DNA from: Escherichia coli
GTDB lineage: Bacteria; Pseudomonadota; Gammaproteobacteria; Enterobacterales; Enterobacteriaceae
Assembly: GCF_013315695.1 (NCBI RefSeq)
Contig: NZ_CP054353.1
Length of the DNA: 64,000 bases
Direction: 5' to 3' (one strand)
The translations under genes and the position numbers were made by a program. Shown one piece after another: positions 7,057 through 59,337 of this stretch (positions within the stretch are counted from its first letter, which is position 1; each line of letters opens with the position of its first letter). Under the pieces are notes generated by a model. That model did not search any database. It saw only the letters and a list, made by a program, of their open reading frames with translations, and was not told where the DNA came from.

Positions 7057-8457
7057 ATGAGCGTTGTGCCTGTAGCCGACGTACTCCAGGGCCGCGTAGC
7101 CGTTGACAGCGAAGTCACCGTGCGCGGATGGGTACGTACCCGCCGAGATTCAAAAGCTGGCATCTCCTTCCTCGCCGTTTATGACGGTTCCTGCTTTGAT
7201 CCTGTACAGGCTGTCATCAATAATTCTCTGCCCAATTACAATGAAGACGTCCTGCGTCTGACCACCGGCTGCTCGGTCATTGTGACGGGTAAAGTCGTGG
7301 CGTCGCCGGGCCAGGGGCAACAATTTGAAATTCAGGCCAGCAAGGTTGAAGTTGCTGGTTGGGTTGAAGATCCAGACACTTACCCGATGGCGGCAAAACG
7401 CCACAGCATTGAGTATCTGCGTGAAGTCGCTCACCTGCGTCCGCGCACAAACCTGATTGGTGCCGTCGCGCGCGTTCGCCATACGCTGGCGCAGGCGCTG
7501 CATCGCTTCTTTAACGAGCAGGGATTCTTCTGGGTTTCAACGCCACTGATTACTGCGTCTGATACCGAAGGGGCTGGCGAAATGTTCCGCGTTTCTACGC
7601 TGGATCTGGAAAACCTGCCGCGTAACGATCAGGGCAAAGTGGATTTCGACAAAGACTTCTTTGGTAAAGAGTCTTTCCTGACCGTATCTGGCCAGTTGAA
7701 CGGCGAAACCTACGCTTGCGCATTATCCAAAATTTATACCTTCGGCCCGACTTTCCGTGCTGAAAACTCCAACACCAGCCGTCACCTGGCGGAATTCTGG
7801 ATGCTGGAGCCGGAAGTGGCGTTTGCTAACCTGAACGATATCGCGGGTCTGGCTGAAGCCATGCTGAAATATGTCTTCAAAGCGGTTCTCGAAGAACGCG
7901 CTGACGACATGAAATTCTTCGCTGAACGCGTAGATAAAGATGCCGTTTCACGTCTGGAACGCTTCATTGAAGCCGATTTTGCGCAGGTGGATTACACCGA
8001 CGCAGTGACCATTCTCGAAAACTGCGGCAGGAAGTTTGAAAACCCTGTTTACTGGGGCGTTGATCTCTCTTCTGAGCATGAGCGTTATCTGGCGGAAGAA
8101 CACTTTAAAGCACCGGTAGTGGTTAAAAACTATCCGAAAGATATTAAAGCGTTCTATATGCGCCTTAACGAAGACGGTAAAACCGTTGCGGCTATGGACG
8201 TTCTGGCTCCGGGCATCGGTGAGATCATTGGTGGCTCTCAGCGTGAAGAACGCCTGGACGTGCTGGACGAGCGTATGCTGGAAATGGGCCTGAATAAAGA
8301 AGATTACTGGTGGTATCGCGATCTGCGTCGCTACGGTACTGTTCCGCATTCAGGTTTCGGTCTTGGTTTTGAACGCCTGATTGCTTACGTAACTGGTGTG
8401 CAAAACGTGCGTGATGTGATTCCGTTCCCACGTACTCCGCGTAACGCCAGCTTCTAA
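7057..8457 (+). CDS. asnS: asparagine--tRNA ligase
   Basis: 466-aa class II aaRS ([13 protein letters not shown]...; C-terminal GLGFERL motif); the track ORF start at 7012 is an upstream extension. Confidence 0.95.
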
Positions 8458-8470
8458 TTTAGCGTCTTCA

Positions 8471-8499
8471 AGAGCCAGCGCCCGCTGGCTCTTTTTTTA
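8471..8499 (+). terminator. rho-independent terminator of asnS
   Basis: Hairpin AGAGCCAGCG-CCCGCTGGCTCT followed by a run of seven T. Confidence 0.7.
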
Positions 8500-9058
8500 T
8501 CCTTTCTGTCAAGTTATCTGTTTGTTAAGTCAAGCAATCTATTTGCAACCCCGCCATAACGATCATCCTGTTACGGAATATTACACTGCAACATTTGCGC
8601 ACAAAAAATAATCCGCATTCTTATTGCGGATTAGTTTTTTCTTAGCTGATAGCACAATTTTCATACTATTTTTTGGCGTTCTGGATGTCTGAACGAGGAT
8701 TTAGTGCCAGGTCGATAAAGTTTCCATCAGAAACAAAATTTCCTTTTAGTTAATTTAAATATAAGGAAATCATATAAATAGATAAAAATTGCTGTAAATA
8801 TCATCACGCTTCTATGGAAATATGACGGTGTTCACAAAGTTCCTTAAATTTTACTTTTAGTTACATATTTTTTCTTTTTGAAACCAAATCTTTATCTTTG
8901 TAGCACTTTCACGGTAGCGAAACGTTAGTTTGAATGGAAAGATGCCTGCAGACACATAAAGACACCAAACTCTCATCAATAGTTCCGTAAATTTTTATTG
9001 ACAGAACTTATTGACGGCAGTGGCAGGTGTCATAAAAAAACCATGAGGGTAATAAATA
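8500..9058 (+). promoter_or_regulatory. long AT-rich ompF upstream regulatory region (promoter, expected OmpR/IHF binding region)
   Basis: About 560 bp of AT-rich non-coding DNA directly upstream of ompF; individual OmpR boxes and the -10/-35 were not mapped here. The assignment rests on known ompF regulation. Confidence 0.55.
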
Positions 9059-10132
9059 ATGATGAAGCGCAATATTCTGGCAGTGATCGTCCCTGCTCTG
9101 TTAGTAGCAGGTACTGCAAACGCTGCAGAAATCTATAACAAAGATGGCAACAAAGTAGATCTGTACGGTAAAGCTGTCGGTCTGCATTATTTTTCTAAAG
9201 ACAATGGTGTAAACAGTTACGGCGGAAACGGCGACAAAACTTATGCCCGTCTTGGTTTTAAAGGGGAAACACAAATCAATTCCGATCTGACCGGCTACGG
9301 TCAGTGGGAATATAACTTCCAGGGTAACAACTCTGAAGGCGCTGATGCCCAGAAAGGTAACAAAACTCGTCTGGCATTCGCAGGTCTGAAATTCGCTGAT
9401 GCGGGTTCTATCGACTACGGTCGTAACTACGGTGTGGTTTACGACGCACTGGGTTACACCGATATGCTGCCTGAGTTCGGCGGTGACACGGCATACAGCG
9501 ATGACTTCTTCGTTGGTCGTGTAGGCGGCGTTGCTACCTATCGTAACTCCAACTTCTTCGGTCTGGTTGACGGCCTGAACTTTGCCGTTCAGTACTTGGG
9601 CAAAAACGAACGTGCTGGTATTCCTGAGCGTTCCAACGGCGACGGCGTCGGTGGCTCTATCAGCTACGAATTCGAAGGCTTTGGTATCGTAGGTGCTTAC
9701 GGTGCAGCAGACCGTACCGACGCCCAGGAAGCCGAATTCCGCGGTCAGGGTAAAAAAGCTGAACAGTGGGCAACTGGTCTGAAGTATGACGCGAACAACA
9801 TCTACCTGGCAGCGAACTACGGTGAAACCCGTAACGCTACGCCAATTGAAGGCGGCTTCGCCAACAAAACGCAAGACGTTCTGTTAGTTGCGCAATACCA
9901 GTTCGATTTCGGTCTGCGTCCGTCCATCGCTTACACCAAATCTAAAGCGAAAGACGTAGAAGGTATCGGTGATGTTGATCTGGTGAACTACTTTGAAGTG
10001 GGCGCAACCTACTACTTCAACAAAAACATGTCCACCTATGTTGACTACATCATCAACCAGATCGATTCTGACAACAAACTGGGCGTAGGTTCAGACGACA
10101 CCGTTGCTGTGGGTATCGTTTACCAGTTCTAA
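9059..10132 (+). CDS. ompF: outer membrane porin F (loop-variant allele)
   Basis: 357-aa ORF with signal peptide [22 protein letters not shown], a C-terminal ...VGIVYQF beta-barrel terminus, and conserved barrel strands. Confidence 0.93.
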
Positions 10133-10162
10133 TAGCACACCTCTTTGTTAAATGCCGAAAAA

Positions 10163-10188
10163 ACAGGACGTTGGTCCTGTTTTTTTTA
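10163..10188 (+). terminator. rho-independent terminator of ompF
   Basis: Hairpin ACAGGACGTTGGTCCTGT followed by eight T. Confidence 0.75.
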
Positions 10189-10316: not shown

Positions 10317-11507
10317 ATGTTTGAGAACATTACCGCCGCTCCTGCCGACCCGATTCTGGGCCTGGCCGATCTGTTTCGTGCCGATGAACGTCCCGGCAAA
10401 ATTAACCTCGGGATTGGTGTCTATAAAGATGAGACGGGCAAAACCCCGGTACTGACCAGCGTGAAAAAGGCTGAACAGTATTTGCTCGAAAATGAAACCA
10501 CCAAAAATTACCTCGGCATTGACGGCATCCCTGAATTTGGTCGCTGCACTCAGGAACTGCTGTTTGGTAAAGGTAGCGCCCTGATCAATGACAAACGTGC
10601 TCGCACGGCACAGACTCCGGGTGGCACTGGCGCACTACGCGTGGCTGCCGATTTCCTGGCAAAAAATACCAGCGTTAAGCGTGTGTGGGTGAGCAACCCA
10701 AGCTGGCCGAACCATAAAAGCGTCTTTAACTCTGCAGGTCTGGAAGTTCGTGAATACGCTTATTATGATGCAGAAAATCACACCCTTGACTTCGATGCAC
10801 TGATTAACAGCCTGAACGAAGCTCAGGCTGGCGACGTAGTGCTGTTCCATGGCTGCTGCCATAACCCAACCGGTATCGACCCTACGCTGGAACAATGGCA
10901 GACACTGGCACAACTTTCCGTTGAGAAAGGCTGGTTACCGCTGTTTGACTTCGCTTACCAGGGGTTTGCCCGTGGTCTGGAAGAAGATGCTGAAGGACTG
11001 CGCGCTTTCGCGGCTATGCATAAAGAGCTGATTGTTGCAAGTTCCTACTCTAAAAACTTTGGCCTGTACAACGAGCGTGTTGGCGCTTGTACTCTGGTTG
11101 CTGCTGACAGTGAGACCGTTGATCGCGCATTCAGCCAAATGAAAGCGGCGATTCGCGCTAACTACTCTAACCCACCAGCACACGGCGCTTCTGTTGTTGC
11201 CACCATCCTGAGCAACGATGCGTTACGTGCGATTTGGGAACAAGAGCTGACTGATATGCGCCAGCGTATTCAGCGTATGCGTCAGTTGTTCGTCAATACG
11301 CTGCAGGAAAAAGGCGCAAACCGCGACTTCAGCTTTATCATCAAACAGAACGGCATGTTCTCCTTCAGTGGCCTGACAAAAGAACAAGTGCTGCGTCTGC
11401 GCGAAGAGTTTGGCGTGTATGCTGTTGCTTCTGGTCGTGTGAACGTAGCCGGGATGACACCAGATAACATGGCTCCGCTGTGCGAAGCGATTGTGGCAGT
11501 GCTGTAA
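10317..11507 (+). CDS. aspC: aspartate aminotransferase
   Basis: 396-aa ORF ([36 protein letters not shown]...) containing the PLP-lysine motif SYSKNFGLY. Confidence 0.95.
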
Positions 11508-11522
11508 GCGTTAAAAACAATG

Positions 11523-11550
11523 AAGCCCGCTTAAAAAGCGGGCTTTTTTA
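11523..11550. terminator. hairpin between convergent aspC and gloC (bidirectional terminator)
   Basis: AAGCCCGCTT-AAAAAGCGGGCTT stem with T/A tracts on both sides. Confidence 0.65.
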
Positions 11551-11557
11551 TGCGCCT

Positions 11558-12205
11558 TTACCAGACGGGCATTTCGTCTTGCAGGAAGGGATTATGCAGG
11601 CGCTCATAACCAAGTGTGGATAATGGTCCGTGACCCGGAATAAATGTCACGTCATCCCCCAGTGGCAGCAATTTATCTTTGATTGAAGAAATCAGTTGAT
11701 TATGATCGCCACGCGGGAAGTCACTGCGCCCTACTCCACCTTTGAAAATAACGTCGCCAGAAATCAGCAGCCTTGCCCGCTCATCAAAAAACACGACATG
11801 ACCCGGCGTATGCCCAGGGCAATGTAACACCTGTAAAGTCACATTCCCTATGCTGATGGTATCGCCTTCGTTCAGCCAACGATCTGGCGTCAGCGGCTGG
11901 CACTCTTCCAGACCAAACATACGACTTTGCGCAGGCAAGCCTTGCAGCCAGAACTCATCTTCTTTTTCCGGGCCAAAAACCGGCACGCCGTAATGTTGCG
12001 CCAGTTCCGCCGCTGCGCCAACGTGGTCCAGATGACCATGAGTCAGCAGGATCTGCATCAGTGTCAGGCCGCTGGCATCAACTTCCTGTTTGATTTTTTC
12101 CGCATCGCCGCCAGGATCGACCAGTGCGGCCAGACGGGTTTGTTCACACCAGATCAATGAACAGTTCTGGGAGAATGCGGTGACCGGAATAATACGATAG
12201 TTCAT
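11558..12205 (-). CDS. gloC: metallo-beta-lactamase-fold hydroxyacylglutathione hydrolase (glyoxalase II family)
   Basis: 215-aa ORF with the MBL motif THGHLDHVG; position beside aspC matches ycbL/gloC. Confidence 0.85.
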
Positions 12206-47099: not shown

Positions 47100-50000
47100 C
47101 TACCCGTCGGCGTAAGGTATCAGCGGCTGTGGCGGTAAATCCATATCGCCCTGCCATCCGGCGGCGGAATACCGTACATAGAGCTGGAAGTGACTTGGCG
47201 CATAATCCTTCGCTTTCTGGATATCAATCGCCGTACCAACAAACCAGTTGGACGTGACGCGACGTTCAAGTAATGCCCGTGCCGTGTAACCAAAACCCTG
47301 ACTGCTGCTACCACTGTTGGATTGTTGTGCTGCTTCTTCCTGCCAGTCGCTCGGGATCAGGTTCATCAGCGGATAACGCGGCATGGTTTTGGTCCGTGAG
47401 TGCGACCATGAACCTGAAGCCCCCAGCTCCCACGACCAGTTTTCCGTCCGCTCGCGCCACATCACCGGCACCGCAAACGACAGGTATTCCTGCGGGCTGT
47501 AGTAACCGCCCTGACCCAGTGAGTACTCACTCAGGTCTTTGTCGTAATGCCAGATCATGTTGTTCAGGCCAATGGTAACGCGGCGGTTATTCTCGTTGAT
47601 AATTTTATAGTAATAGCCCGTCATCCAGCGCACGCGCCAGTTATCTTCGACATTTTTACCGGTTAACTGATCACCGCTAAGCGATGCCCAGACGCCGTTT
47701 GCTTCACCTTTATCGTAACTCAGACTTAGCCCCACGCCGTCGGCACGCACGCCGCCCCATTTTTTCCCGGTGTTGCCCGGAGAATCTTTCTGCCCGCCGA
47801 AGGCCAGCATTGAGCTGGAGACAGGCCGACGATGTGCGTCAACGGTATAGCCGAGTGGGCCGATACTGTCGCTGTAACTGACAGCGCCGACCACATCCAC
47901 CACGTTGAATCCCATCGGTGTGGTGCCAATATCCCAGCTCCAGGTGTCGTTGCGCCAGCCAACCGCCACGCTTGTGCCGGAGTCTGACTGACTGCGGTTG
48001 CCGCTACACTCCTGCAGCGTACAGGTTCCCCAGTTATCATCCCATTTGCCATCGGCATTAGTGGAGAAACTGCCGACGTTCATATTGACGAAATCACTGC
48101 GAAAGAACATCCGACCGTCAGAATACGGCGCATCCACCTGCAACATGGTGGTATGTGCTTTCAGGTCAGAATAGCCGCCAGTGCCGTTTGATCCCCAGTA
48201 GTCGTGCTCCAGGGTGACATTGAGATCCTGCTGACGATAAAGATCTGCCGCATCGCTGCGCACGCCACGTTTCAGCCAGTCATCCTGCTCATCATTACGG
48301 GTAAGGCGGGTAAAGGTGTCGTTATCCTGCGGACGTGTCGTCGTCACGCCGGAAGCGATCATCGCATCTTTGTAGGTTTCCAGCGCCTGTTGCGGTTCAC
48401 CCGCCTGCGCCTCAAATTTTGCGCCATCGCGCAGTACCATCGCGCTTTCCATCGACGGCGGCTGAGATTTTGCCTGCAGGATCAGCCTGTTAAATGTCTG
48501 CTGTGCCGCTGCGGTATCGCCAAGCTGTGCCTGCACCAACGCCACGCGCCGCTGAGTGTTCAGCGAGGCGTTATCGGTGGCGGGAAGTTTCGCCAGTTGA
48601 CTGCGCGCCGCGGCTTTGTCGCCTGCGGCAATATCCACTTCCGTCAGGCCAAGAATGGCATCGGCGTTATTCGACTCCCGCGCCAGCACATTCTGATACG
48701 CCGTGCGGGCGGCGGTGTAATCGCGTCGCTGTTGTGCCCAGTCAGCCAGCGTAAGATCAATGCGCGTGGAAGGCGGTTGCTGGCGTAGCATCGCCTCCGC
48801 ATCCTGTTCTTTGCCACTGTCACGCAGGCGATTAGCCGTTTCCAGAATCTGATCGCTTTGCAGGCGATTCACCAGTTCCTGAATGTTGCCGTTCCACCGG
48901 GCGCGCGGCAGATTGTTAATATGCGCCAGCGCCGCCCGCTCCTGATCGTGACCGGAGAGATACAGTCCGTAAGCGTAAACCTGGTCCGGGTCGTTCGGCT
49001 TCTGTTGCGCCAGGTTACGCATTAACGTATCAGCCTGGGTACGTTGTCCGGCCTGCCAGAGATCCTGCGAAAGCCGGTAAGTTACCCACACACTGCCGGG
49101 GTCCAGCGCCAGTCGTTGCCGCTGAAGTGCTGCCGCCTGCGCCCATTTACCCTGATTTTCCAGCGCCTCCGCCTGCTGCGATAAGCGATCGTTTTGCAGA
49201 CTGCGTTCGATATCATCAATACTGCGCCGCTGGCTGGCAGAAAGTGACGCAATAAACGCTTCAGCTTTTTCCGGCGATTGCTGCCGATAAATGTTCGCCA
49301 GTCCACGCACGGCGTTAGTGTTGCCGCTGTCCATACGCAGGGTCTGCTGATAATAACGTTCGGCGGCGGGGTAATCTTTTCGCGCCATTGCCACATCACC
49401 CAGCCCCAGCACCGCATAGCTGTCGGTGTTATCGACATTGCGTGCCTGCAGGAACAGGCGTTCCGCCTGATCAGGATTGTTCGCTTTCAGTGCGGCATCG
49501 CCCTGTTGGATCGCCAGCCAATAACGGTTCACTTTCAGCAAACTGTTCCATTTGTCGTTGTTGCTGCTGTGCGGGCCCAGCGCGAGGGCTTTTTCCAGAT
49601 TTGCCACCGCATTCGCGCGATCGCCTTTCTGTGAATAAGCCTGGCCCAGCGCCCCCAATATTGCACCAGAGTTTGGGTTATCAATATTAAGTTTTTTCAA
49701 CTGACTAATTGCCTCGTTGCGACGAGATGCAATTTGCGCCACTGCACTCCAGTATTCCAACGCCATGCCGACATCTGACGGTACTCCGTTAAATAGCTTG
49801 TCATAACTGACAATAGCCTCCTCGTATCGCCCGGAGATAGCTTGTAAACGCGCCATTTGCAATGCCTGGCGCCCCTCAAGCGAAGAAAGTCGCATGACCG
49901 TACGCGATGCTTTATATATTTTTGAATCTGGGGCGATCAGAGAAAGTCTGGCAAGTTGTTTGTGTGCTCCGTCAATATCCCCCTTGCGAAGCAGATAGCG

Positions 50001-50207
50001 AAACCGAGCCGCAACGACATCAGGATTATTGGGCTCCACCAATTCAAGGCGATAAAGCGACTGCTCCACCAGTTCTTCACGGTGAGAGTCTTCTCCCAAT
50101 CGAATCTGTGCCATCAGCAGTTGATAAGCAGTTGGCGTGGCTTTTGCCATCGACATTACCGCCAAACCAAGAGATATGGTGAGTAAATTTAGGGTGAATT
50201 TGTGCAT
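47100..50207 (-). CDS. BcsC-like outer-membrane exopolysaccharide export protein (N-terminal TPR region + C-terminal beta-barrel)
   Basis: About 1035-aa ORF (ATG at 50207; track start 50219 is TTG) with signal peptide MHKFTLNLLTISLGLAVMSMAKA, multiple TPR-like repeats, and a C-terminal region rich in alternating aromatic/Gly beta-strands typical of BcsC barrels. Last gene of the co-oriented cluster. Confidence 0.8.
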   Translation of the reverse strand: MHKFTLNLLTISLGLAVMSMAKATPTAYQLLMAQIRLGEDSHREELVEQSLYRLELVEPNNPDVVAARFRYLLRKGDIDGAHKQLARLSLIAPDSKIYKASRTVMRLSSLEGRQALQMARLQAISGRYEEAIVSYDKLFNGVPSDVGMALEYWSAVAQIASRRNEAISQLKKLNIDNPNSGAILGALGQAYSQKGDRANAVANLEKALALGPHSSNNDKWNSLLKVNRYWLAIQQGDAALKANNPDQAERLFLQARNVDNTDSYAVLGLGDVAMARKDYPAAERYYQQTLRMDSGNTNAVRGLANIYRQQSPEKAEAFIASLSASQRRSIDDIERSLQNDRLSQQAEALENQGKWAQAAALQRQRLALDPGSVWVTYRLSQDLWQAGQRTQADTLMRNLAQQKPNDPDQVYAYGLYLSGHDQERAALAHINNLPRARWNGNIQELVNRLQSDQILETANRLRDSGKEQDAEAMLRQQPPSTRIDLTLADWAQQRRDYTAARTAYQNVLARESNNADAILGLTEVDIAAGDKAAARSQLAKLPATDNASLNTQRRVALVQAQLGDTAAAQQTFNRLILQAKSQPPSMESAMVLRDGAKFEAQAGEPQQALETYKDAMIASGVTTTRPQDNDTFTRLTRNDEQDDWLKRGVRSDAADLYRQQDLNVTLEHDYWGSNGTGGYSDLKAHTTMLQVDAPYSDGRMFFRSDFVNMNVGSFSTNADGKWDDNWGTCTLQECSGNRSQSDSGTSVAVGWRNDTWSWDIGTTPMGFNVVDVVGAVSYSDSIGPLGYTVDAHRRPVSSSMLAFGGQKDSPGNTGKKWGGVRADGVGLSLSYDKGEANGVWASLSGDQLTGKNVEDNWRVRWMTGYYYKIINENNRRVTIGLNNMIWHYDKDLSEYSLGQGGYYSPQEYLSFAVPVMWRERTENWSWELGASGSWSHSRTKTMPRYPLMNLIPSDWQEEAAQQSNSGSSSQGFGYTARALLERRVTSNWFVGTAIDIQKAKDYAPSHFQLYVRYSAAGWQGDMDLPPQPLIPYADG

Positions 50208-51968
50208 ACCTGGACTCAATCAGGTGTTAACTCACTTTTTATTAAAAAATGAATAAGCGCAGTTCCCTGCCCTGCCTGTTTAAGGCCAGAGCAGAGAGCT
50301 ACAAAGATGAATTACTGTTGATGAGGATTCAGACGACGATGGCTAATGATGCGTAGCAGACGCCAGACGACCCACGCCAGAAGCACCACACTCAGCATTG
50401 CCATTCCTGCCAGCAAAACAGGATGTTTCGCTAACATATATTGCGCGCGCTCAATCCAGGGAAGATGCCCCACATAATAGGTATCTCCAACCCGTAAACT
50501 ATCGACACCTGATTCACGAATAACCGCAACTGAGCCAAATATATTGCCACGTTTTGCACTATTAATTAGCGCATTATTAAGTAACTCGTCACCACGTGCC
50601 CCCTCGGTCATTAATGCAATTACGCTACGTTGGGGATGATATGGAGACTGGAAACCAACCACCGCGGCCATTGGCGATGGAGAGATCATGCTTGTTTGTG
50701 TTTCAGTTTTTTGGTTGTTTTCATCTGTCATAATTTGTGCGTTATCAGAGTGCCGCATTGGCGTTTTTACCCAACTAGCGGTTGCATCAATGAGCAGATT
50801 AATTTGCTGCTGACCTGCAAATTCTTGCGGAATTGCCCCTATCAGCAGGATGTCTGCATCCTTATTCTGGATGGAGCTTATATCATCAGTAACTGTCAGA
50901 TTAATTGCCGGAAATCCGGTTTGAGCACCAATCAATCCAAGGGTATTTAGCAATATTTCAACCTGCGTTGTACCAGGATGTTCAGGCATAACGATGACTG
51001 TTTCAGATAAATCGGCCATACGGCTAAAAGGAAAGCCTGAACTAGCAAAGGCGCGTAAATCTGGCATGGCGATAAAGTGATGATACTTTGAAAAATCGAT
51101 AGTAGAATCATCAGCAATAACTGCATGGTTATTCAGAGGCCGGGAAATAATACAACTCCCGTCATCAGTACTCGGTATCGTATTAACGTACTCAAAATTG
51201 AATCGTAATTGATTAAGTGCCCCCAATGTCAGCGCCGGAATGGTAATTTTATTATTGCTATCTGACAATTCTTGCAATAACGGTAAATGTAATAGCAGTC
51301 GATCAGTAGTCGAGCGCGGGCTTGGGCGAAAAGATTCAATGTACTGATTATTAAGATTAACATCAATACGAGAACCGCCTACCATTGGCGTGGTATAGCG
51401 ATAGTTAATCTTCATATCAACCCCACTATTACGTAACAGAAAGAGATCAGGCGGCAAATTGAATGAAACATTAATTGCTGCGATCTGCAGGGCACTTGCC
51501 TGTAACTGTCCTTCATAGTTTTTAAGCTCTGCGAAAGTTACAGGACGATCAGTGCGAACCCAGTTTGGCGCATCATAAGGTTTGCGTGGCAGCAGTGGTT
51601 TCACGTCATTTACAACCACACTATCGCCGCGAAACAGTATATTTCCCTGAGCGAGACCTTTTGCTGCCTGTAATAAATCTTTGTCATCGCGGCCCCAAAT
51701 TACCAACAATTTGACGAAAGGATTTTGTGGATGGTTAATCATCTTAATAACAGGTGCATTCACCAACGGATGATCACGCAAAAAGTCTGGCCGTCTATTG
51801 TTAGTGGCAAAGACTATAGCATTGCTTTCCGGTAACTGATTATAAAAAACTGGAAATTGATGACCACGCCACCCCGATTGCGAACCAAACCACGAAGCGA
51901 CAATTGCAGATGCTTGCTGCAAACCAGCCTCCGGTGGGCCAGCAAAAACCATCGGCAATGTATTAGTA

Positions 51969-51977
51969 CGGTTATCT
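51969..51977. repeat. 9-bp IS1 target-site duplication, left copy (CGGTTATCT)
   Basis: Identical 9-mer at 52746-52754 flanks the other end of IS1. Confidence 0.9.
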
Positions 51978-52032
51978 GGTGATGCTGCCAACTTACTGAT
52001 TTAGTGTATGATGGTGTTTTTGAGGTGCTCCA

Positions 52033-52308
52033 GTGGCTTCTGTTTCTATCAGCTGTCCCTCCTGTTCAGCTACTGACGGGGTGGTGCGTAACGGCAAAAG
52101 CACCGCCGGACATCAGCGCTATCTCTGCTCTCACTGCCGTAAAACATGGCAACTGCAGTTCACTTACACCGCTTCTCAACCCGGTACGCACCAGAAAATC
52201 ATTGATATGGCCATGAATGGCGTTGGATGCCGGGCAACAGCCCGCATTATGGGCGTTGGCCTCAACACGATTTTACGTCACTTAAAAAACTCAGGCCGCA
52301 GTCGGTAA
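52033..52308 (+). CDS. insA: IS1 InsA (transposition inhibitor / N-terminal part of InsAB' transposase)
   Basis: 91-aa [45 protein letters not shown]... matching IS1 InsA. Confidence 0.95.
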
Positions 52309-52730
52309 CCTCGCGCATACAGCCGGGCAGTGACGTCATCGTCTGCGCGGAAATGGACGAACAGTGGGGCTATGTCGGGGCTAAATCGCGCCAGCGCTGG
52401 CTGTTTTACGCGTATGACAGGCTCCGGAAGACGGTTGTTGCGCACGTATTCGGTGAACGCACTATGGCGACGCTGGGGCGTCTTATGAGCCTGCTGTCAC
52501 CCTTTGACGTGGTGATATGGATGACGGATGGCTGGCCGCTGTATGAATCCCGCCTGAAGGGAAAGCTGCACGTAATCAGCAAGCGATATACGCAGCGAAT
52601 TGAGCGGCATAACCTGAATCTGAGGCAGCACCTGGCACGGCTGGGACGGAAGTCGCTGTCGTTCTCAAAATCGGTGGAGCTGCATGACAAAGTCATCGGG
52701 CATTATCTGAACATAAAACACTATCAATAA
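52227..52730 (+). CDS. insB: IS1 InsB frame (expressed as InsAB' via -1 frameshift)
   Basis: 167-aa ORF in the -1 frame relative to insA, matching IS1 InsB. Confidence 0.9.
52282..52290 (+). promoter_or_regulatory. IS1 programmed -1 ribosomal frameshift site (TTAAAAAAC)
   Basis: The A6C slippery motif lies in the insA/insB overlap, where the IS1 frameshift site is known to be. Confidence 0.7.
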
Positions 52731-52745
52731 GTTGGAGTCATTACC

Positions 52746-52754
52746 CGGTTATCT
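52746..52754. repeat. 9-bp IS1 target-site duplication, right copy (CGGTTATCT)
   Basis: Exact repeat of 51969-51977. Confidence 0.9.
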
Positions 52755-53455
52755 CGCGGATCAAAGAATGGCACAGGAAAATATGAAAGATCATTTTGCA
52801 GATTGAGTTTCTGGACGACCAGACCAAGTTCACTGTTACGTCCAATATCAAGCCACAAGTTATTGCTGGTTGAGATTTCACAGCTATTCTGATAATGGCC
52901 AATTAATTCAAAACGCAAACGATTAAAATCCGAGAAATACAATGGGTTAAGCGTTATTTCCGCCAACGTTTTTTTTCCCAGTTGTTCTTTGGTAATCGGT
53001 AATACTCCCATCAACTCATCATTAAGATAAACTTTAAGCTGCGACTGAACGGGGATCAATGACGGTGACGGAGTATATTCAAGCTTTAGTTTTGCATCTG
53101 AAACTATCTCATCACTGCGCATACCAAATTCAATATACCCCAGTGGGTTGACACCATTCAAAACGATGTTACCAGGCGCTGGTGATATTTGTGTAAATGG
53201 AAGTTTAAAATGATAAGAGGAATCTTTCGCATAAACAGAGACGTTAGACTTCTCTATAGCGGGTAATACTATCCCGGAGGGAGACTTATGGATTATGGTA
53301 TCTAAAGCTGATGCAGCATTTGCCTGGTATAACCATAAAAACCCTAAGCAAATTATTGCAGTAATAAATTTTAAATATTTTCTTTCCATTTTAAAAATTT
53401 CAAGAGACATAATCAACACAAATAATATATTTAGTTGGTTAAATATAATCTAAAA

Positions 53456-55570
53456 CTAATTCTCACGACTATTTTTTAGTGTCCGCAGAATATAAAAAAT
53501 CATATTGTAATACCCTTTAAGAGAGATGATACATACGTCAAAAAAGCTCTTTAGTATATTATCTTGCTTAATTTTATCATTCCACTCTTGCCATAATGAA
53601 TCACGTGAAAATGTTACTCTGACATAATTAATATTCTGTTCATAAGTCATTGGCAAAATCTTCAGACCAATTTTATTTTTGTAAGCATGAACAACTTTTA
53701 CAGGAATATCACATTCCCCTTTATTATCACTCAGATAAAGAGACAAATGCTGAGTTTTTTCGATTTCTTTTACATCGGAGATGTGATCAACAATAACCCC
53801 CAGGCCACCTTCGGAGAAATCAATAACAGAACAGGGATAGCACCGTCCATCTGCTAGTTTTATCACACCTTTAAAAGAAACATCTATCCGAGGAGAAAAG
53901 CGGACCTGCTTTTGTTCAATAGAGACTGCCAGGGTTGCGCCAATAATAATTGTATTATAAATCAACCAAATCAAACAAAATAAATTTAATATAACAAGAT
54001 GACCTTGCAATCTATAAATATTAATAACACCTATTATTAGTCCAATTAAATTTAAAATAGCAAAAATAAGATAAGGATATGAGATTCGCCAGTCAACAAA
54101 TTTATTTTTTATTAACCCGCCCTTGGCAGTAACGTTAAATCGCCCTTTAGCTGGCGCAAGTAAGGCAACAAGCGTTGGTAGTGTAATATACCAGGCCAGA
54201 ACCATTTCATAAATTTCATTCCAAAATGAATGTCTGTATTCACCCTGAACTCTTGAGTTAGTAAAAATAATCACAAATAGATAAGGTAGAACATAAGACA
54301 TAATATCTGCAACCGACGCATCTATCAAATTAACTGAAAAGAAAATAGGACATAGTGGCGCGAATAAAAAAATCAGCCGTGGAACCCCTGATAAAAAATG
54401 CATCATGCTACTGAGATAGCAAAGACGCTGTGATAACGTCAGCCCTTTGCCCAATAATGGATTATCAATACGTAAGATTTGGATCATGCCCCTGGCCCAC
54501 CGTATTCGTTGTCCGATATGAGCAGACAATGTTTCGGTAGCAAGTCCAGCGGCCAGAGGATAGCGAAGATATGCGGAGCTGTACCCTGCACGATGCAAGC
54601 GTAGCGATGTATGCGCATCTTCCGTTACCGTTTCAACTGCAATGCCTCCAACCTCATCTAATGCAGACCTACGGATAACCGCGCATGAACCACAAAAAAA
54701 TGAAGCATTCCATGTATCGGTGCCATTCTGGATTAAACCATAAAAAAGATGTCCTTCATTTGGTTTCTGCCGAAATTGCCCCAAGTTTCGCTCAAAAGGA
54801 TCGGGAGAGAAAAAATGATGTGGTGTTTGCAGCATCGATAGTTTTTTATCGGCAATAAACCAGCCCATCGTTTTTTTTAAAAAAGAAACGGAAGGAATAT
54901 GATCACAATCGAAAATAGCAACAAATTCGCCGTTAGCTATTTTAAGCGCATTGTTTATATTTCCAGCTTTCGCATGTTCATGCGTTTCTCTTGCAACATA
55001 GCAAATACCTGACTCATCAGCAAATTTCCTGAATTCGTCTCTGGCACCATCATCAAGAAGCCAGACATGTAATTTATCTTTTGGCCAGTCTAAAGCCAGC
55101 GCTCCATAAACTGTATTCTTCACGACAGTAAAGGGTTCATTATATGTAGGTATGAATATATCGACATCAGGCCATTCTTCTTTATTATCTGGTAAAGGTA
55201 TGCTTTCCCTGTTCAATGGGAAACAGACCTGAAAATAACCAAGTAATAAAACAAACCATGCATACGTTTCAGCAGCTAACAGCGTCAATGAAAAGAAGCT
55301 GTCAGGAAACTCATCAAGAATAACTGAAGAAGAGTAACGCCACCATAGATACCTTGTGGATATAAGTATACCAATACCCATTAAGATCAGGGTAATCATC
55401 CTTCCCCTGAGCAAATTGAGGAGAAAAACAGAGATACAAATGATAATCGAGAATAGTGTTTGTTGATAAAAACCGAGCGGCTGTTCAACAATTGACAAAA
55501 AAACAAAACATAGCAATATAGCAACAAAAAGAAAAATTTTGTTGTATATTTCTTTATTTTTTAAATTCAT
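53456..55570 (-). CDS. BcsA-like processive family-2 glycosyltransferase with C-terminal PilZ (c-di-GMP-binding) domain
   Basis: 704-aa ORF with eight or more predicted TM helices, GT2 motifs (LLDDGARDEF, FDCDH, TVTEDAHT, QRIRWARG, FFCGSCAV) and PilZ motifs (RFSPR = RxxxR; DFSEGG = DxSxxG). About 35% GC. Confidence 0.88.
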   Translation of the reverse strand: MNLKNKEIYNKIFLFVAILLCFVFLSIVEQPLGFYQQTLFSIIICISVFLLNLLRGRMITLILMGIGILISTRYLWWRYSSSVILDEFPDSFFSLTLLAAETYAWFVLLLGYFQVCFPLNRESIPLPDNKEEWPDVDIFIPTYNEPFTVVKNTVYGALALDWPKDKLHVWLLDDGARDEFRKFADESGICYVARETHEHAKAGNINNALKIANGEFVAIFDCDHIPSVSFLKKTMGWFIADKKLSMLQTPHHFFSPDPFERNLGQFRQKPNEGHLFYGLIQNGTDTWNASFFCGSCAVIRRSALDEVGGIAVETVTEDAHTSLRLHRAGYSSAYLRYPLAAGLATETLSAHIGQRIRWARGMIQILRIDNPLLGKGLTLSQRLCYLSSMMHFLSGVPRLIFLFAPLCPIFFSVNLIDASVADIMSYVLPYLFVIIFTNSRVQGEYRHSFWNEIYEMVLAWYITLPTLVALLAPAKGRFNVTAKGGLIKNKFVDWRISYPYLIFAILNLIGLIIGVINIYRLQGHLVILNLFCLIWLIYNTIIIGATLAVSIEQKQVRFSPRIDVSFKGVIKLADGRCYPCSVIDFSEGGLGVIVDHISDVKEIEKTQHLSLYLSDNKGECDIPVKVVHAYKNKIGLKILPMTYEQNINYVRVTFSRDSLWQEWNDKIKQDNILKSFFDVCIISLKGYYNMIFYILRTLKNSREN

Positions 55571-55643
55571 GGTACGTAACTATTCATTAATACTATGATT
55601 TGACTTTAAAAAAACGAATGAATGATGTCATAAAAATAAAATT

Positions 55644-56984
55644 TTAACACCAGGTTACCTGTGCTCTTCCATTTTGCTTACTTTTGTATAATCGTTCATC
55701 TGCCAGTAATTTCAACCGTTCAATGTTATTCATGCACTCGTCAGTATTGGCAACACCAATACTGCAACTACAATTCAATCCACCTATTGAGAAATGGACT
55801 ATTCTGTGCAAAATTCTTGATAATTGATTTATATCTTTATCATGATAAATAATAGCGAACTCATCGCCACCAAATCGATAAACTTCACCTTTGCTGAGGG
55901 GTAATTCATCCTTAATAAGATTAACAAGTCTTATTAGTACTTCATCACCAAATAAATGACCAAACTTGTCATTAATGGTTTTAAACTTATCTACATCAAA
56001 CAGGCATAAATATCCAAAATCCTTACTCAGCATCCTGATATTTTTATCAAAAACACGACACCCAGAAGCTCGCGTCAATGCATCGTAAGTCCCGGAATCA
56101 TATATTTCTCTAATTGCATCAATCTCTTCAACGTTAAAGAATAGATTTTTTCCATGCAAATTATAATGATTATTCGATAATATAGATTCTTTTTCTGACT
56201 TACCCTTATTTATGATTTTTTGCATTAATTTAATGTAATGAAAATATATTAACCCCGCAGAAATCGCCGATGTGAAAACAAAAAACAAGCACATATAAAT
56301 ATACTTATCTTTTTTATAGGCAACAATAAACATTACTTCCGGGATATAAGAATAAGCAAGAGTGATCGCTGATTTCTCAAATACAGCATCATTAATCAAA
56401 AAATCATCACCCGCGATTTTCTTTTCATTATCATTGATATCATAAAATGAGACATATATATTTTCCCGTTCACCTGACTGATTTCTTATCAAAGCCAAAT
56501 AACGTTCAGGATCTACCACTGATATCAAACTTGTTCGTTTCGAAATAGGATGAGCATAATAAATATAATATTTATTATTTAAACTAATAATCCCTCTTTC
56601 AAAGATGTTACTTATACGGATAGAAGAAACTATGCCGTCACAAAAGTTATCCCCTTCCGTTGTAACTTTGGCGCATTTACCATCGCTAATGATATAGGGA
56701 CCTAGATCATAAATATATTCTGGTTTTTGAAAGTCAGCAAAACTATTGCGTATCCTTTTTAACAACTCTTCCGGAGAAATATCTAACCCATAAAATACAT
56801 TATTAAATACTAAGCGCCGATACTCAGACACATTAGCTATAGCAAGCCCACTATCTATGATCGATACCTTTACCGAATTGACTCGATCTTTAACGTAAAT
56901 AGTATACAGATAACATGTCATTACAGAGACACATAAAAAATACAAAAAACAGATCCCTGCTGCCTTTTTTTTATACTTAAACAT
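55644..56984 (-). CDS. membrane-anchored diguanylate cyclase (two TM helices flanking a periplasmic domain + GGDEF domain); DgcI/YliF-like by architecture
   Basis: 446-aa ORF with GGDEF-domain motifs DALT, FDVDKFKTINDKFGH, RFGGDEFAII and ADERLYKSKQNGR; no RxxD I-site five residues upstream of GGDEF. About 30% GC. Confidence 0.85.
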   Translation of the reverse strand: MFKYKKKAAGICFLYFLCVSVMTCYLYTIYVKDRVNSVKVSIIDSGLAIANVSEYRRLVFNNVFYGLDISPEELLKRIRNSFADFQKPEYIYDLGPYIISDGKCAKVTTEGDNFCDGIVSSIRISNIFERGIISLNNKYYIYYAHPISKRTSLISVVDPERYLALIRNQSGERENIYVSFYDINDNEKKIAGDDFLINDAVFEKSAITLAYSYIPEVMFIVAYKKDKYIYMCLFFVFTSAISAGLIYFHYIKLMQKIINKGKSEKESILSNNHYNLHGKNLFFNVEEIDAIREIYDSGTYDALTRASGCRVFDKNIRMLSKDFGYLCLFDVDKFKTINDKFGHLFGDEVLIRLVNLIKDELPLSKGEVYRFGGDEFAIIYHDKDINQLSRILHRIVHFSIGGLNCSCSIGVANTDECMNNIERLKLLADERLYKSKQNGRAQVTWC

Positions 56985-56988
56985 TGTG

Positions 56989-59337
56989 TTATTTTCTTTT
57001 TTTCGGTTTACTGTCTATATGCCACTCTGAAAACGGTAATGGTTTCTGGTATAAATATCCCTGAACATGGGAGAAGCCTAATTTTTGTAATTCTCTGGCC
57101 TGTCTTTCTGTTTCAACACCTTCAGCGATCACTGGCATATTTTCTTCTCGTGCAAGACTAGATATAAAACACACAACCCTGTTAGTTTCATCGAAAATAC
57201 CAGAAGTAAATTCTGAATCAATTTTGATGCTATCAGGTCTAACTTTGTATAATTTTTTCAAGTCAGCTAACCCACTGCCAAAATCATCAAGGGAAATTTT
57301 AATGCCATTTCTTCTTAAAAATTTTATATTATTATAAAAACTATCATTTATATCTTTCATTGCTGACTCGGTGATCTCCAGACAGATTTGTTCCGTATTT
57401 ACGCCAAATTTATTAATTAAATTCAAAACGCGGGTATGGAAATCAAATTCATTTAACTGCCAAGGTGAAACATTGATATGCAGAAGAAATTCTTTCGTAA
57501 TTTCATACTCACGACTAAATGAACCAAATTCACCAATAGCCGTTTCAAGAACAAAATCACCCAGTTCTTTAATTAAGCCAATTTCTTCAGCAACAGGCAC
57601 GAAAACTGATGGTGGTATTGCACCATTTTCAACGGACAACCAGCGGCATAACGCTTCGGCGCCAACAACATTATTACTATCCATATCAACAATCGGTTGA
57701 TATACTAAATAAAACTCACTACTCACAATTGCTTTTTTTATATTTCCAGCAACCCAAACCTTTTGATCAAGTTCATGAGCCTTAATATCATCATAAAATA
57801 TAAATTCAGATTCTTTATTTTCTCGCATAGCTGTTAATGCCAGTTTCAGTTTACCTTCATAAATCGACAAACTTTCCCCTGAAAAAGTTTCACAAATAGC
57901 AACCTTATGAACATAAATATTTCTTATGCAAAAAATATGCTCAGGAAAGTTTAAAACAGATAATCGTTCTATGAACTCTTCACAATGAGTGTGACACAGC
58001 AACAAATATGTTTCAGTAGAAATTTTTATAATATCACAATATTTAGAATACTTTGCTGATATCTTTGATTTTATATCATTAATGATCTCATAAAATTTCT
58101 GACTGCCATGTATAGCCTCTACAAACTCTAATCCATAGATACAAAGCATACCAACTGCTGAATAGGTTTTATTATTAGTTTCAATGACAGATTTGTTGAT
58201 ATAGAAACAACTTCCTTGTTCATAGGAAACAAGATTAAGTAACCGTTCCATCCGCTCTTTGTATTTGTCACTAATGTTATTAATGATTTTTTTGAGCTCA
58301 ATAATCTCACTACTGTCATTTTGCACGATTTCGATTTTATCATTTCGGTATACTGAGCTCGCTAATTTTTTCAGATGCTCAATTAGTTTACCAGAGTCGT
58401 TTCTAACCTTTTTTGTTATCTTTTCAAAAAGGTACCATAATAAACAGAAACAAACCAAACCACATACAAACATCAGTGTAAAATATTTATTTATGTTTGT
58501 GTCTTCTGCTTTTTGATAATGAAAATAATGAAATTTGACATCAGGAAGCCTGGGGAGTGAAATAATATCGTCCGTATAATTACCGTTATTATTACTTATG
58601 TTATAACGTCCAGATGCATCTCTAACAATAAGATGTAACATTGATTGTTCATTACCTACCATAATCCTTTTATTCTGTTCCATAAATAAAATATCTGCAT
58701 TTCCTCCTAATTTGTCCAGGAAATTGCTAAAATATCTTTCATCAAGATCTAAATGAATTAACTTCAGAGCAAATGAATCTTTTTCTGCTTCGGCTGGTCG
58801 TAATGAAAACGAAAAACATTTTTTCCCGGCAATGCCATAGCAGTTATACCATGGTGACCATTTTGAATAAGTCCCTGTTGGTAATTTATTCCAGGGACGG
58901 GATTCAGGATCAAAGTAGTTATCGTTAATTTCACCATCAGGGCTAGTAAAAGCATGACCTGGCTCTGATTGCCCCAAAAATTTAACATCACCATTATCAG
59001 TTCGAATAAAGCTAAGATACTTTCCATTATTTAGCATTATTCCGACTAAATTAACAGAATCTATCTTTTTCATCCGATGAAGAACTGCGCGTTTTATTTC
59101 ATTTTCATCGTGTAACAGATAAATGGCATCTTTTAAAGCATCCGCCTCTTTTTCAACTTTAGAAAAAAAGTTATTCAAATTATTATTGATAAGTATAAGA
59201 TTAATGCGTGAAGAGTTTTCTGCTATTTTTTTATAAAAATCAATGGCTGTAATAAATGATAAAATAATATAGACAGTGACAGCGAATATAAGCGCAGTGT
59301 TAAATCTTGAGTTTAATTTTTCTGTGATGCTATACAT
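56989..59337 (-). CDS. membrane-anchored c-di-GMP phosphodiesterase (periplasmic sensor domain + cytoplasmic linker + EAL domain); PdeI/YliE-like by architecture
   Basis: 782-aa ORF; EAL-domain catalytic motifs are intact (EALCRW, NVSPWQ, EITES, DDFGSGL, KIDSEF, EGVETE, GYLYQKP). Its stop is 4 bp from the dgc start. Confidence 0.85.
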   Translation of the reverse strand: MYSITEKLNSRFNTALIFAVTVYIILSFITAIDFYKKIAENSSRINLILINNNLNNFFSKVEKEADALKDAIYLLHDENEIKRAVLHRMKKIDSVNLVGIMLNNGKYLSFIRTDNGDVKFLGQSEPGHAFTSPDGEINDNYFDPESRPWNKLPTGTYSKWSPWYNCYGIAGKKCFSFSLRPAEAEKDSFALKLIHLDLDERYFSNFLDKLGGNADILFMEQNKRIMVGNEQSMLHLIVRDASGRYNISNNNGNYTDDIISLPRLPDVKFHYFHYQKAEDTNINKYFTLMFVCGLVCFCLLWYLFEKITKKVRNDSGKLIEHLKKLASSVYRNDKIEIVQNDSSEIIELKKIINNISDKYKERMERLLNLVSYEQGSCFYINKSVIETNNKTYSAVGMLCIYGLEFVEAIHGSQKFYEIINDIKSKISAKYSKYCDIIKISTETYLLLCHTHCEEFIERLSVLNFPEHIFCIRNIYVHKVAICETFSGESLSIYEGKLKLALTAMRENKESEFIFYDDIKAHELDQKVWVAGNIKKAIVSSEFYLVYQPIVDMDSNNVVGAEALCRWLSVENGAIPPSVFVPVAEEIGLIKELGDFVLETAIGEFGSFSREYEITKEFLLHINVSPWQLNEFDFHTRVLNLINKFGVNTEQICLEITESAMKDINDSFYNNIKFLRRNGIKISLDDFGSGLADLKKLYKVRPDSIKIDSEFTSGIFDETNRVVCFISSLAREENMPVIAEGVETERQARELQKLGFSHVQGYLYQKPLPFSEWHIDSKPKKRK

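Follow-up and report, generated by a model that had tools for sequence, protein, structure and literature searches.

A natural ompF allele class of Escherichia coli with a divergent, probably recombinant middle and changed surface loops

OmpF forms trimeric channels, and its expression is controlled by EnvZ/OmpR and micF. The window analysed here, a stretch of 64,000 nucleotides of Escherichia coli, carries an ompF gene whose product differs from the K-12 porin mainly in its external loops, and this raises the question of how such a surface arose, by recent change within the loops or by acquisition of an older haplotype, and of what it may mean for the agents that recognize OmpF from outside. 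The original prediction, made from the sequence alone, described an ompF allele encoding 357 rather than 362 residues, with conserved barrel strands and altered loops, and regarded this pattern as typical of diversifying selection by phages, colicins or immunity.

The gene assignment and the length of the product were both confirmed, and the gene resides at its native locus (Table 1), as the order asnS-ompF-aspC in the window is that of annotated E. coli chromosomes, a K-12-type chromosome included. The 357-residue product aligned over its full length with K-12 OmpF (residues 1-357 against 1-362 of PDB 3hw9, E = 7.8e-216), OmpF chains in the PDB scored far higher than those of PhoE and OmpC, and the precomputed Pfam domain is PF00267 (Porin_1). 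The reading frame is uninterrupted, with a signal peptide at the N-terminus and a C-terminus ending in VYQF, and an AlphaFold model built on a 50-sequence alignment displayed 16 strands and eight external loops at a mean pLDDT of 81, with a short helix predicted in the L3 segment (residues 124-154). At the nucleotide level the gene is 100% identical to ompF as annotated in strain MS 21-1, and the encoded protein is identical to OmpF of strains CE10 (O7:K1) and SMS-3-5, listed in RefSeq as WP_000977905.1 'porin OmpF', with three synonymous nucleotide differences from CE10 and about two from SMS-3-5. Taken together, we consider it very likely that the gene represents a functional, natural ompF allele class (the CE10/SMS-3-5 type) that occupies the native locus and carries a divergent recombinant middle. 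An antisense ORF of 257 residues at 9101-9874 was attributed to the strong bias of the ompF frame and is not regarded as a gene.

Among carriers of this allele class, disrupted forms do occur, with a frameshifted ompF in strain 98224 and two database proteins that carry deletions (P0010 and P0016), and these might lend some colour to the idea that the window gene is a pseudogene in decay or an error of sequencing or assembly. However, its frame, signal peptide and C-terminal YQF are intact, ompF DNA that is at least 99% identical was found in 484 of 5,426 complete E. coli genomes (approximately 9%) originating from humans, animals and water, the 90%-identity protein cluster to which the product belongs has 544 members, and the dN/dS of the strands is 0.04, so that we regard the chance of an artefact or pseudogene as practically negligible.

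Table 1. Features of the ompF locus in the window, with differences from K-12 where these apply (codons in precursor numbering).
Feature	Position	Strand	Observation and basis
asnS, upstream neighbour	7057..8457	+	Marks the native ompF site; ORF and annotated E. coli loci
ompF upstream regulatory region and 5' UTR	8458..9058	+	15 substitutions and one 1-nt deletion compared to K-12
ompF CDS, CE10/SMS-3-5-type allele, WP_000977905.1	9059..10132	+	357 codons and stop; ORF, homology, nucleotide identity
Signal peptide, codons 1-22	9059..9124	+	Same as K-12; alignment, mature PDB chains begin at query residue 23
Divergent recombinant block, codons 40-265	9176..9853	+	All 87 nucleotide substitutions and both indels compared to K-12
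L1, codons 47-61	9197..9241	+	G48D, E51V, M60K; holds microcin PDI motif K47-G48-N49, here K-D-N
L2, codons 89-101	9323..9361	+	T99K; latch residue E93 kept
Periplasmic ends of strands 4 and 5 and turn T2, codons 112-118	9392..9412	+	Y112F, V115A, F118I; outside the surface loops
Constriction loop L3, codons 124-154	9428..9520	+	Protein same as K-12; 8 synonymous DNA differences, dS 0.52
L4, codons 181-195	9599..9643	+	NERAGIPER compared to K-12 NERD-TARR; 1-codon insertion, 4 substitutions, dN 0.19
L5, codons 219-232	9713..9754	+	6 substitutions: N221D, L222A, Q226E, P227F, L228R, N230Q; dN 0.35
L6, codons 259-269	9833..9865	+	Short form PIEGGF, without K-12 TNKFTN
Probable intrinsic terminator of ompF, AAAAAACAGGAC-GTTG-GTCCTGTTTTTTTT	10158..10187	+	Direct reading of the sequence
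aspC, downstream neighbour	10317..11507	+	ORF and annotated E. coli loci

Alignments were made to K-12 references (PDB 3hw9, 362 residues, and a K-12-type chromosome), and they showed that the K-12 OmpF sequence on which the original prediction relied was accurate and that every one of the four loop segments quoted there, which correspond to L1, L4, L5 and L6, indeed differs. In total, 20 substitutions and seven indel codons separate the two proteins (approximately 92.6% identity), one of which, T99K in L2, was absent from the earlier list. When mapped onto the AlphaFold model, 16 substitutions out of 20, together with the two indels, fell in the external loops L1, L2, L4, L5 and L6, amounting to an approximately 13- to 16-fold enrichment of changes in external loops (Fisher p = 6e-7 within the divergent block alone and 6e-8 for the entire protein). 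The most diverged loop is L5, the K-12 counterpart of which reads DRTNLQEAQPLGNG, and L6 is six residues shorter in the window (PIE------GG against PITNKFTNTSG), K-12 OmpF having one residue fewer in L4 and six more in L6.

The predicted conservation of the strands held with four exceptions, Y112F, V115A, F118I and Y205F (precursor numbering), all of them conservative and all on the periplasmic side, in turn T2 or where strands 4, 5 and 8 end; those at codons 112-118 may belong to the region that Chen et al. (2021) call 'HVR2', which is periplasmic. In all other respects the protein follows K-12 OmpF (P02931; PDB 2OMF, 3HW9), with which it shares the locus, the signal peptide, the 16-strand barrel and identical loops L3, L7 and L8. 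The pore and latch residues K38, R64, R104, R154, D135, E139 and E93 are unchanged, as are D135, E139, G141 and D143 when L3 is considered by itself, and the same pore and latch positions are invariant or nearly so in the 50-sequence alignment. In mature numbering, we take the constriction residues of OmpF to be K16, R42, R82, R132, D113 and E117. The latch residue is E71 of L2 in the mature protein (PMC5056734). Since neither the barrel nor L3 nor the residue that latches the trimer has changed, diffusion through the channel should resemble that of K-12 OmpF.

At the DNA level the differences from K-12 are not spread over the gene. Within the block of 678 nucleotides 87 of 675 aligned sites differ (12.9%), while none of the 393 sites in the remainder of ompF does, and the block boundaries are sharp; the flanks of 1.4-1.5 kb on each side diverge from K-12 by 1.6-1.9%. 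This clustering is highly significant, both for the block compared to the remainder of the gene (Fisher p = 1e-18) and compared to the flanks (p = 6e-32). Moreover, 51 codons of the block, some of them in the strands and others in L3 despite its unchanged protein sequence, carry synonymous changes only, and the Nei-Gojobori method counted 27 synonymous differences in strands and turns and eight in L3. By the same method, the block dS between the window allele and K-12 was 0.535, close to the 0.528 obtained for the same block between K-12 and E. albertii, whereas the alleles of REL606, EDL933, ST131, A0 34/86, NCTC9112 and STEC276 gave values of 0.04-0.085 against K-12, so that the window allele is 6-14 times as far from K-12 in block dS as other E. 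coli alleles (0.04-0.09). A deep block enclosed by ordinary E. coli gene ends points to a divergent haplotype that entered by homologous recombination within the gene, and not to loop-directed point mutation. Codons 40-265 thus represent a deeply divergent haplotype between 5' and 3' ends of the gene that are of ordinary E. coli type, placed there by homologous intragenic recombination, which continues to reshuffle pieces of it. The between-species level of synonymous divergence of the block goes beyond the available text of the literature.

The same data bear on in-situ diversification, that is, on recent point mutations and small indels in the loops of a K-12-like ancestor under phage, colicin or immune pressure. 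The loop enrichment of amino acid changes, at least 13-fold, is what such a process could leave behind, and ompF has been listed among positively selected genes (Chen SL et al., 2006; Petersen et al., 2007; cited as references 30 and 31 in the available text of PMC5056734). On the other hand, it does not account for the synonymous-only codons in strands, turns and an invariant L3, for a dS that falls from its high block value to 0 elsewhere in the gene across sharp boundaries, for a dN/dS of only 0.15 in the external loops, or for a short L6 that is ancestral and not a new deletion (see below), and we therefore find this explanation very improbable.

In pairwise Nei-Gojobori estimates the external loops had a dN/dS of 0.15, compared to 0 for L3 and 0.04 for strands and turns, and nowhere in the comparison of the window allele with K-12 did pairwise dN/dS exceed 1; L5 came near the neutral rate (approximately 0.95) only if the dS of the strands, 0.37, was taken as the denominator. 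The higher ratio of the loops indicates that they are less constrained than the strands, which together with L3 are under strong purifying constraint, and with a loop dN/dS of 0.15 no claim of selection can be drawn from the pairwise comparison. Thus, of the originally proposed pattern of diversifying selection, the concentration of changes in surface loops stands, but a block dS of 0.54 and the low loop dN/dS point to an old haplotype brought in by recombination instead.

Comparison with outgroups allowed the polarity of several changes to be read. The short L6 is common to E. albertii, several Citrobacter species, Superficieibacter and the A25 and NCTC9112 alleles, and because outgroups and other E. 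coli alleles have the short form, the K-12 L6 (TNKFTN) is a derived insertion. The shorter L6 had been put forward as a change in the window allele, and it is on the contrary K-12 that has changed. Likewise, F112, A115/I118 and F205 of the window OmpF are common to outgroups, the combination F/A/I at positions 112/115/118 recurring in SCPM-O-B-8794 and, in part, in E. albertii and Citrobacter. Neither the synonymous depth of the block nor the derived state of the K-12 L6 is reported in the available text of Chen et al. (2021).

The source of the block was sought in several collections. In a scan of species-representative genomes 80 loci were kept among the matches listed, comprising E. albertii, SCPM-O-B-8794, Citrobacter and other genera and not including E. 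fergusonii, E. marmotae or E. ruysiae, and no donor of the block was present among these matches. E. albertii OmpF shares the short L6, F112 and I118 with the window OmpF, but its block diverges by 15% at the nucleotide level and it is not the donor; nor is Citrobacter, which shares the short L6 and an L5 beginning with 'TDAQ' but diverges by 21-23%. SCPM-O-B-8794, labelled E. coli although its flanks are approximately 10% from E. coli, diverges by 14%. In a search of 5.8 billion proteins the L4 (AGIPE) and L5 (EAEFRGQG) motifs were found only in E. coli proteins of the allele class, and the nearest match (P0002, 92%) has an L4 and L5 that are K-12/E. albertii-like. Neighbour-joining of the block, using all codons or strands and L3, gave bootstrap values of only 43-70% for its position relative to E. 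albertii and other Escherichia alleles, so that the trees are compatible with a branching either inside or outside E. albertii. In the phage and plasmid collections nothing was closer to the block than K-12-type ompF. The between-species depth of the block, with a source not found among the collections searched, is what remains as mildly novel.

These searches also speak to gene conversion from a paralogous porin (ompC, phoE, ompN or nmpC) or from a porin borne by a phage or plasmid. E. coli does possess several porin paralogues, and lambdoid phage porins (lc, NmpC, OmpD) appeared as weak matches, but a diagnostic piece of 201 nucleotides spanning L4 and L5 occurred once per genome, always at ompF, in the 505 genomes that matched it, thereby excluding conversion from a paralogue. 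Phage porin genes were at most 69% identical to the block, the plasmid matches covering most of it were K-12-type ompF at 87% and others reached 60-80%, and the block protein is approximately 89% identical to K-12 OmpF, far closer than the OmpC and PhoE matches in the PDB. Conversion from another porin is accordingly scarcely credible as the origin of the block. The 87% matches in the plasmid collection lie mostly in very large records that resemble chromosomal sequence.

The distribution of the block among genomes demonstrated that recombination in ompF is modular and ongoing. A 70-nt probe for L1 matched 769 of the 5,426 complete genomes (approximately 14%), and the L4-L5 probe matched in 505, of which 485 at 99% identity or more; it follows that approximately 280 genomes carry the L1 module without the L4-L5 module. 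That the L1 module circulates independently, in some 14% of genomes compared to 9% for the full allele, is not contained in the available literature text. In STEC276 the window haplotype is present at codons 40-71 only, the L1 region, and the gene is K-12-like from codon 79, while SMS-3-5 carries the same allele as the window with an upstream flank that is 99.7% identical and a downstream flank that differs by 2%. Two further alleles extend this picture, the A25 allele being E. albertii-like along the whole of ompF and the NCTC9112 allele having the short L6 on a K-12-like background.

Such mosaics have been described before. According to the available text, E. coli OmpF falls into five major groups set by hypervariable regions in external loops and one periplasmic region (Chen et al., bioRxiv 2021), and these groups were explained by local recombination acting alongside selection, both positive and purifying (Chen et al., 2021; PMC12175518). 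The window allele fits this description, as its variation is limited to a small number of hypervariable regions, most of them at extracellular loop tips, and as local recombination with sharp boundaries has placed its modules in varied backgrounds. CE10 OmpF is among the proteins modelled by Chen et al. (2021), in the text available to us, and shows no substantive difference from the window OmpF, and a follow-up in 2025 repeats the group picture. The window ompF thus exemplifies a phenomenon and an allele group that have both been published and, as far as these sources go, is already known. For the window itself it carries little weight, being an ordinary ompF with an intact frame, whose allele class is common and described. 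A similar organization is known from OmpC, also a general porin with modular, recombining extracellular loops that occur in many combinations in E. coli (Beck et al., 2016, PMC5056734); there, L4 and L5 are proven to decide recognition by CdiA-EC536, in contrast to the window ompF, which is known by its sequence.

How a haplotype of this depth came to be maintained in E. coli can be explained in more than one way. As a tentative reading, and one that we hold possible without expecting it to be the correct one, the block may be a very old balanced polymorphism, a lineage dating back roughly to the divergence of E. coli from E. albertii that was kept by frequency-dependent selection from phages or bacteriocins, with recombination wearing the edges of the block and swapping loop modules. 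Alternatively, the block could have entered by introgression from an Escherichia-like lineage that is still unsequenced. It could also be that the haplotype is old or introgressed and that its loop changes are neutral, having accumulated in weakly constrained loops and spread by hitch-hiking with no escape from any receptor-binding agent. We regard such neutrality as unlikely, yet a serious contender, because dN/dS is at most 1 in every loop, including L5 at approximately 0.95 on the strand dS, because the allele is found in the lineage reference strains CE10 and SMS-3-5, and because long divergence under relaxed constraint fits the loop dN/dS of 0.15 equally well. Both strains are presumably of phylogroup F. 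Against neutrality it can be said that loop modules occur in varied combinations and on varied flanking backgrounds, that the changed loops have documented ligand roles, and that the published interpretation, in the text available, prefers selection, although none of these points is decisive.

Regulation of the allele is expected to be ordinary. All 15 substitutions in the upstream region lie upstream of position 8860, and the single deletion does not; the 199 nucleotides preceding the ompF ATG are the same as in K-12 except for one A fewer in the A-run at 9033. Downstream of the gene, the loop of the terminator differs from K-12 by one base, and a consensus terminator scan did not call the hairpin at 10158..10187. 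Judging from these flanks and from the conserved pore, we infer that the window OmpF would be a general porin under normal regulation, as permeable as that of K-12 but with a different exposed surface.

With the faces of L1, L2, L4, L5 and L6 replaced compared to K-12, recognition by phages, microcins and antibodies should change, and an altered receptor specificity of the window OmpF is plausible on the grounds of the predicted loop positions and of what is known about ligands of these loops. OmpF is used by T2-like Gp38 adhesins and by the BASEL phage Bas47, the regions bound by phage K20 are given in the available text as L5, L6 and L7, and published work, as far as available, has tied OmpF loop variation to phage, bacteriocin and immune pressure. 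Since the loops of OmpF dock T-even-like and other phages, microcins and antibodies, the allele can affect the host range in phage therapy, sensitivity to bacteriocins and the coverage of vaccine epitopes. Not every OmpF ligand need respond to loop changes, however, as the co-receptor role of OmpF for CdiA-EC536 tolerates OmpF as distant as that of Salmonella and Enterobacter (PMC5056734). For microcin PDI, susceptibility is governed by K47-G48-N49 of L1 according to published work that cites Zhao et al. (2015, PMC4579430), and the K-D-N found in the window allele, a point beyond the literature text available, offers a direct and testable prediction.

Damage to ompF was found in some carriers of the allele class to which the 357-aa ompF of the window belongs (CE10/SMS-3-5 type). 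In the urine isolate 98224, the gene of this class is frameshifted (locus L091, 1501-2578), and two database variants of the class, both retrieved in the search of 5.8 billion proteins, carry in-frame deletions; P0010 has lost L2/strand 4, and P0016 lacks most of L3. Such damaged genes are consistent with the porin loss that is frequent in clinical isolates. The same search returned P0006, a protein of 348 aa encoded on a metagenome contig of 2399 bp, in which the N-terminal 100 residues are OmpC-like and are followed from strand 4 on by the ompF allele of the window. P0006 may represent a natural fusion of ompC and ompF, or it may have been created by a chimeric metagenome assembly.

Other unusual ompF alleles of E. 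coli were also encountered. The gene of strain A25, from a monkey (locus L085, 1634-2704), is deeply divergent from K-12 along its whole length, with a dS of 0.49 to K-12 in the block, the deeply divergent part of the window's ompF, and a dS of 0.29 to the window outside it; the A25 gene resembles those of E. albertii and SCPM-O-B-8794. NCTC9112 (locus L084, 1634-2704) has a K-12-like gene, but with a short L6. The asnS and aspC flanks of SCPM-O-B-8794 (locus L074), titled Escherichia coli, are approximately 8-10% divergent from every E. coli compared, a distance equal to that of E. albertii, and this strain probably belongs to a cryptic clade or to a different species of Escherichia.

Around ompF, non-coding differences from K-12 were identified. 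Approximately 173 bases of the K-12 aspC-gloC intergenic region are missing from the window (approximately 11510-11560), from MS 21-1, the ompF of which is identical in nucleotide sequence to that of the window, and from several other strains, giving an intergenic length of 50 nt in MS 21-1 compared to 221 nt in the K-12-type locus; K-12 may have gained the surplus through insertion of a REP/BIME-type element. In the ompF 5' UTR, the A-run directly 5' of the Shine-Dalgarno sequence (window 9033) is A7 in place of the A8 of K-12, and the 199 nt that precede the start codon are otherwise the same as in K-12. The ORF found antisense to ompF is most likely a side effect of the biased codon usage of ompF and not a gene.

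Elsewhere in the window lies a cellulose-synthase-like gene cluster. Three of its products are Bcs-like: a TPR protein of 1039 aa resembling BcsC, a BcsB-like protein, and a GT2 and PilZ protein of 704 aa resembling BcsA. The cluster also encodes a GAPES2-GGDEF and a CHASE9-EAL protein. K-12 is not known to carry bcs-type genes at the matching position. The BcsB-like gene is cut in two by a copy of IS1, and the cluster is therefore probably inactivated.

Positions in the window of the antisense ORF, the cellulose-synthase-like cluster and its IS1 copy
Feature	Position	Strand	Length (aa)	Remark
ORF antisense to ompF	9101-9874	-	257	
Cellulose-synthase-like gene cluster	47100-59337	-		adjoins pflA
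BcsB-like C-terminal ORF	50312-51991		559	
IS1 copy	~52000-52767			inside BcsB-like gene
InsA of IS1	52033-52308		91	
InsB of IS1	52227-52730		167	
BcsB-like N-terminal ORF	52724-53419		231
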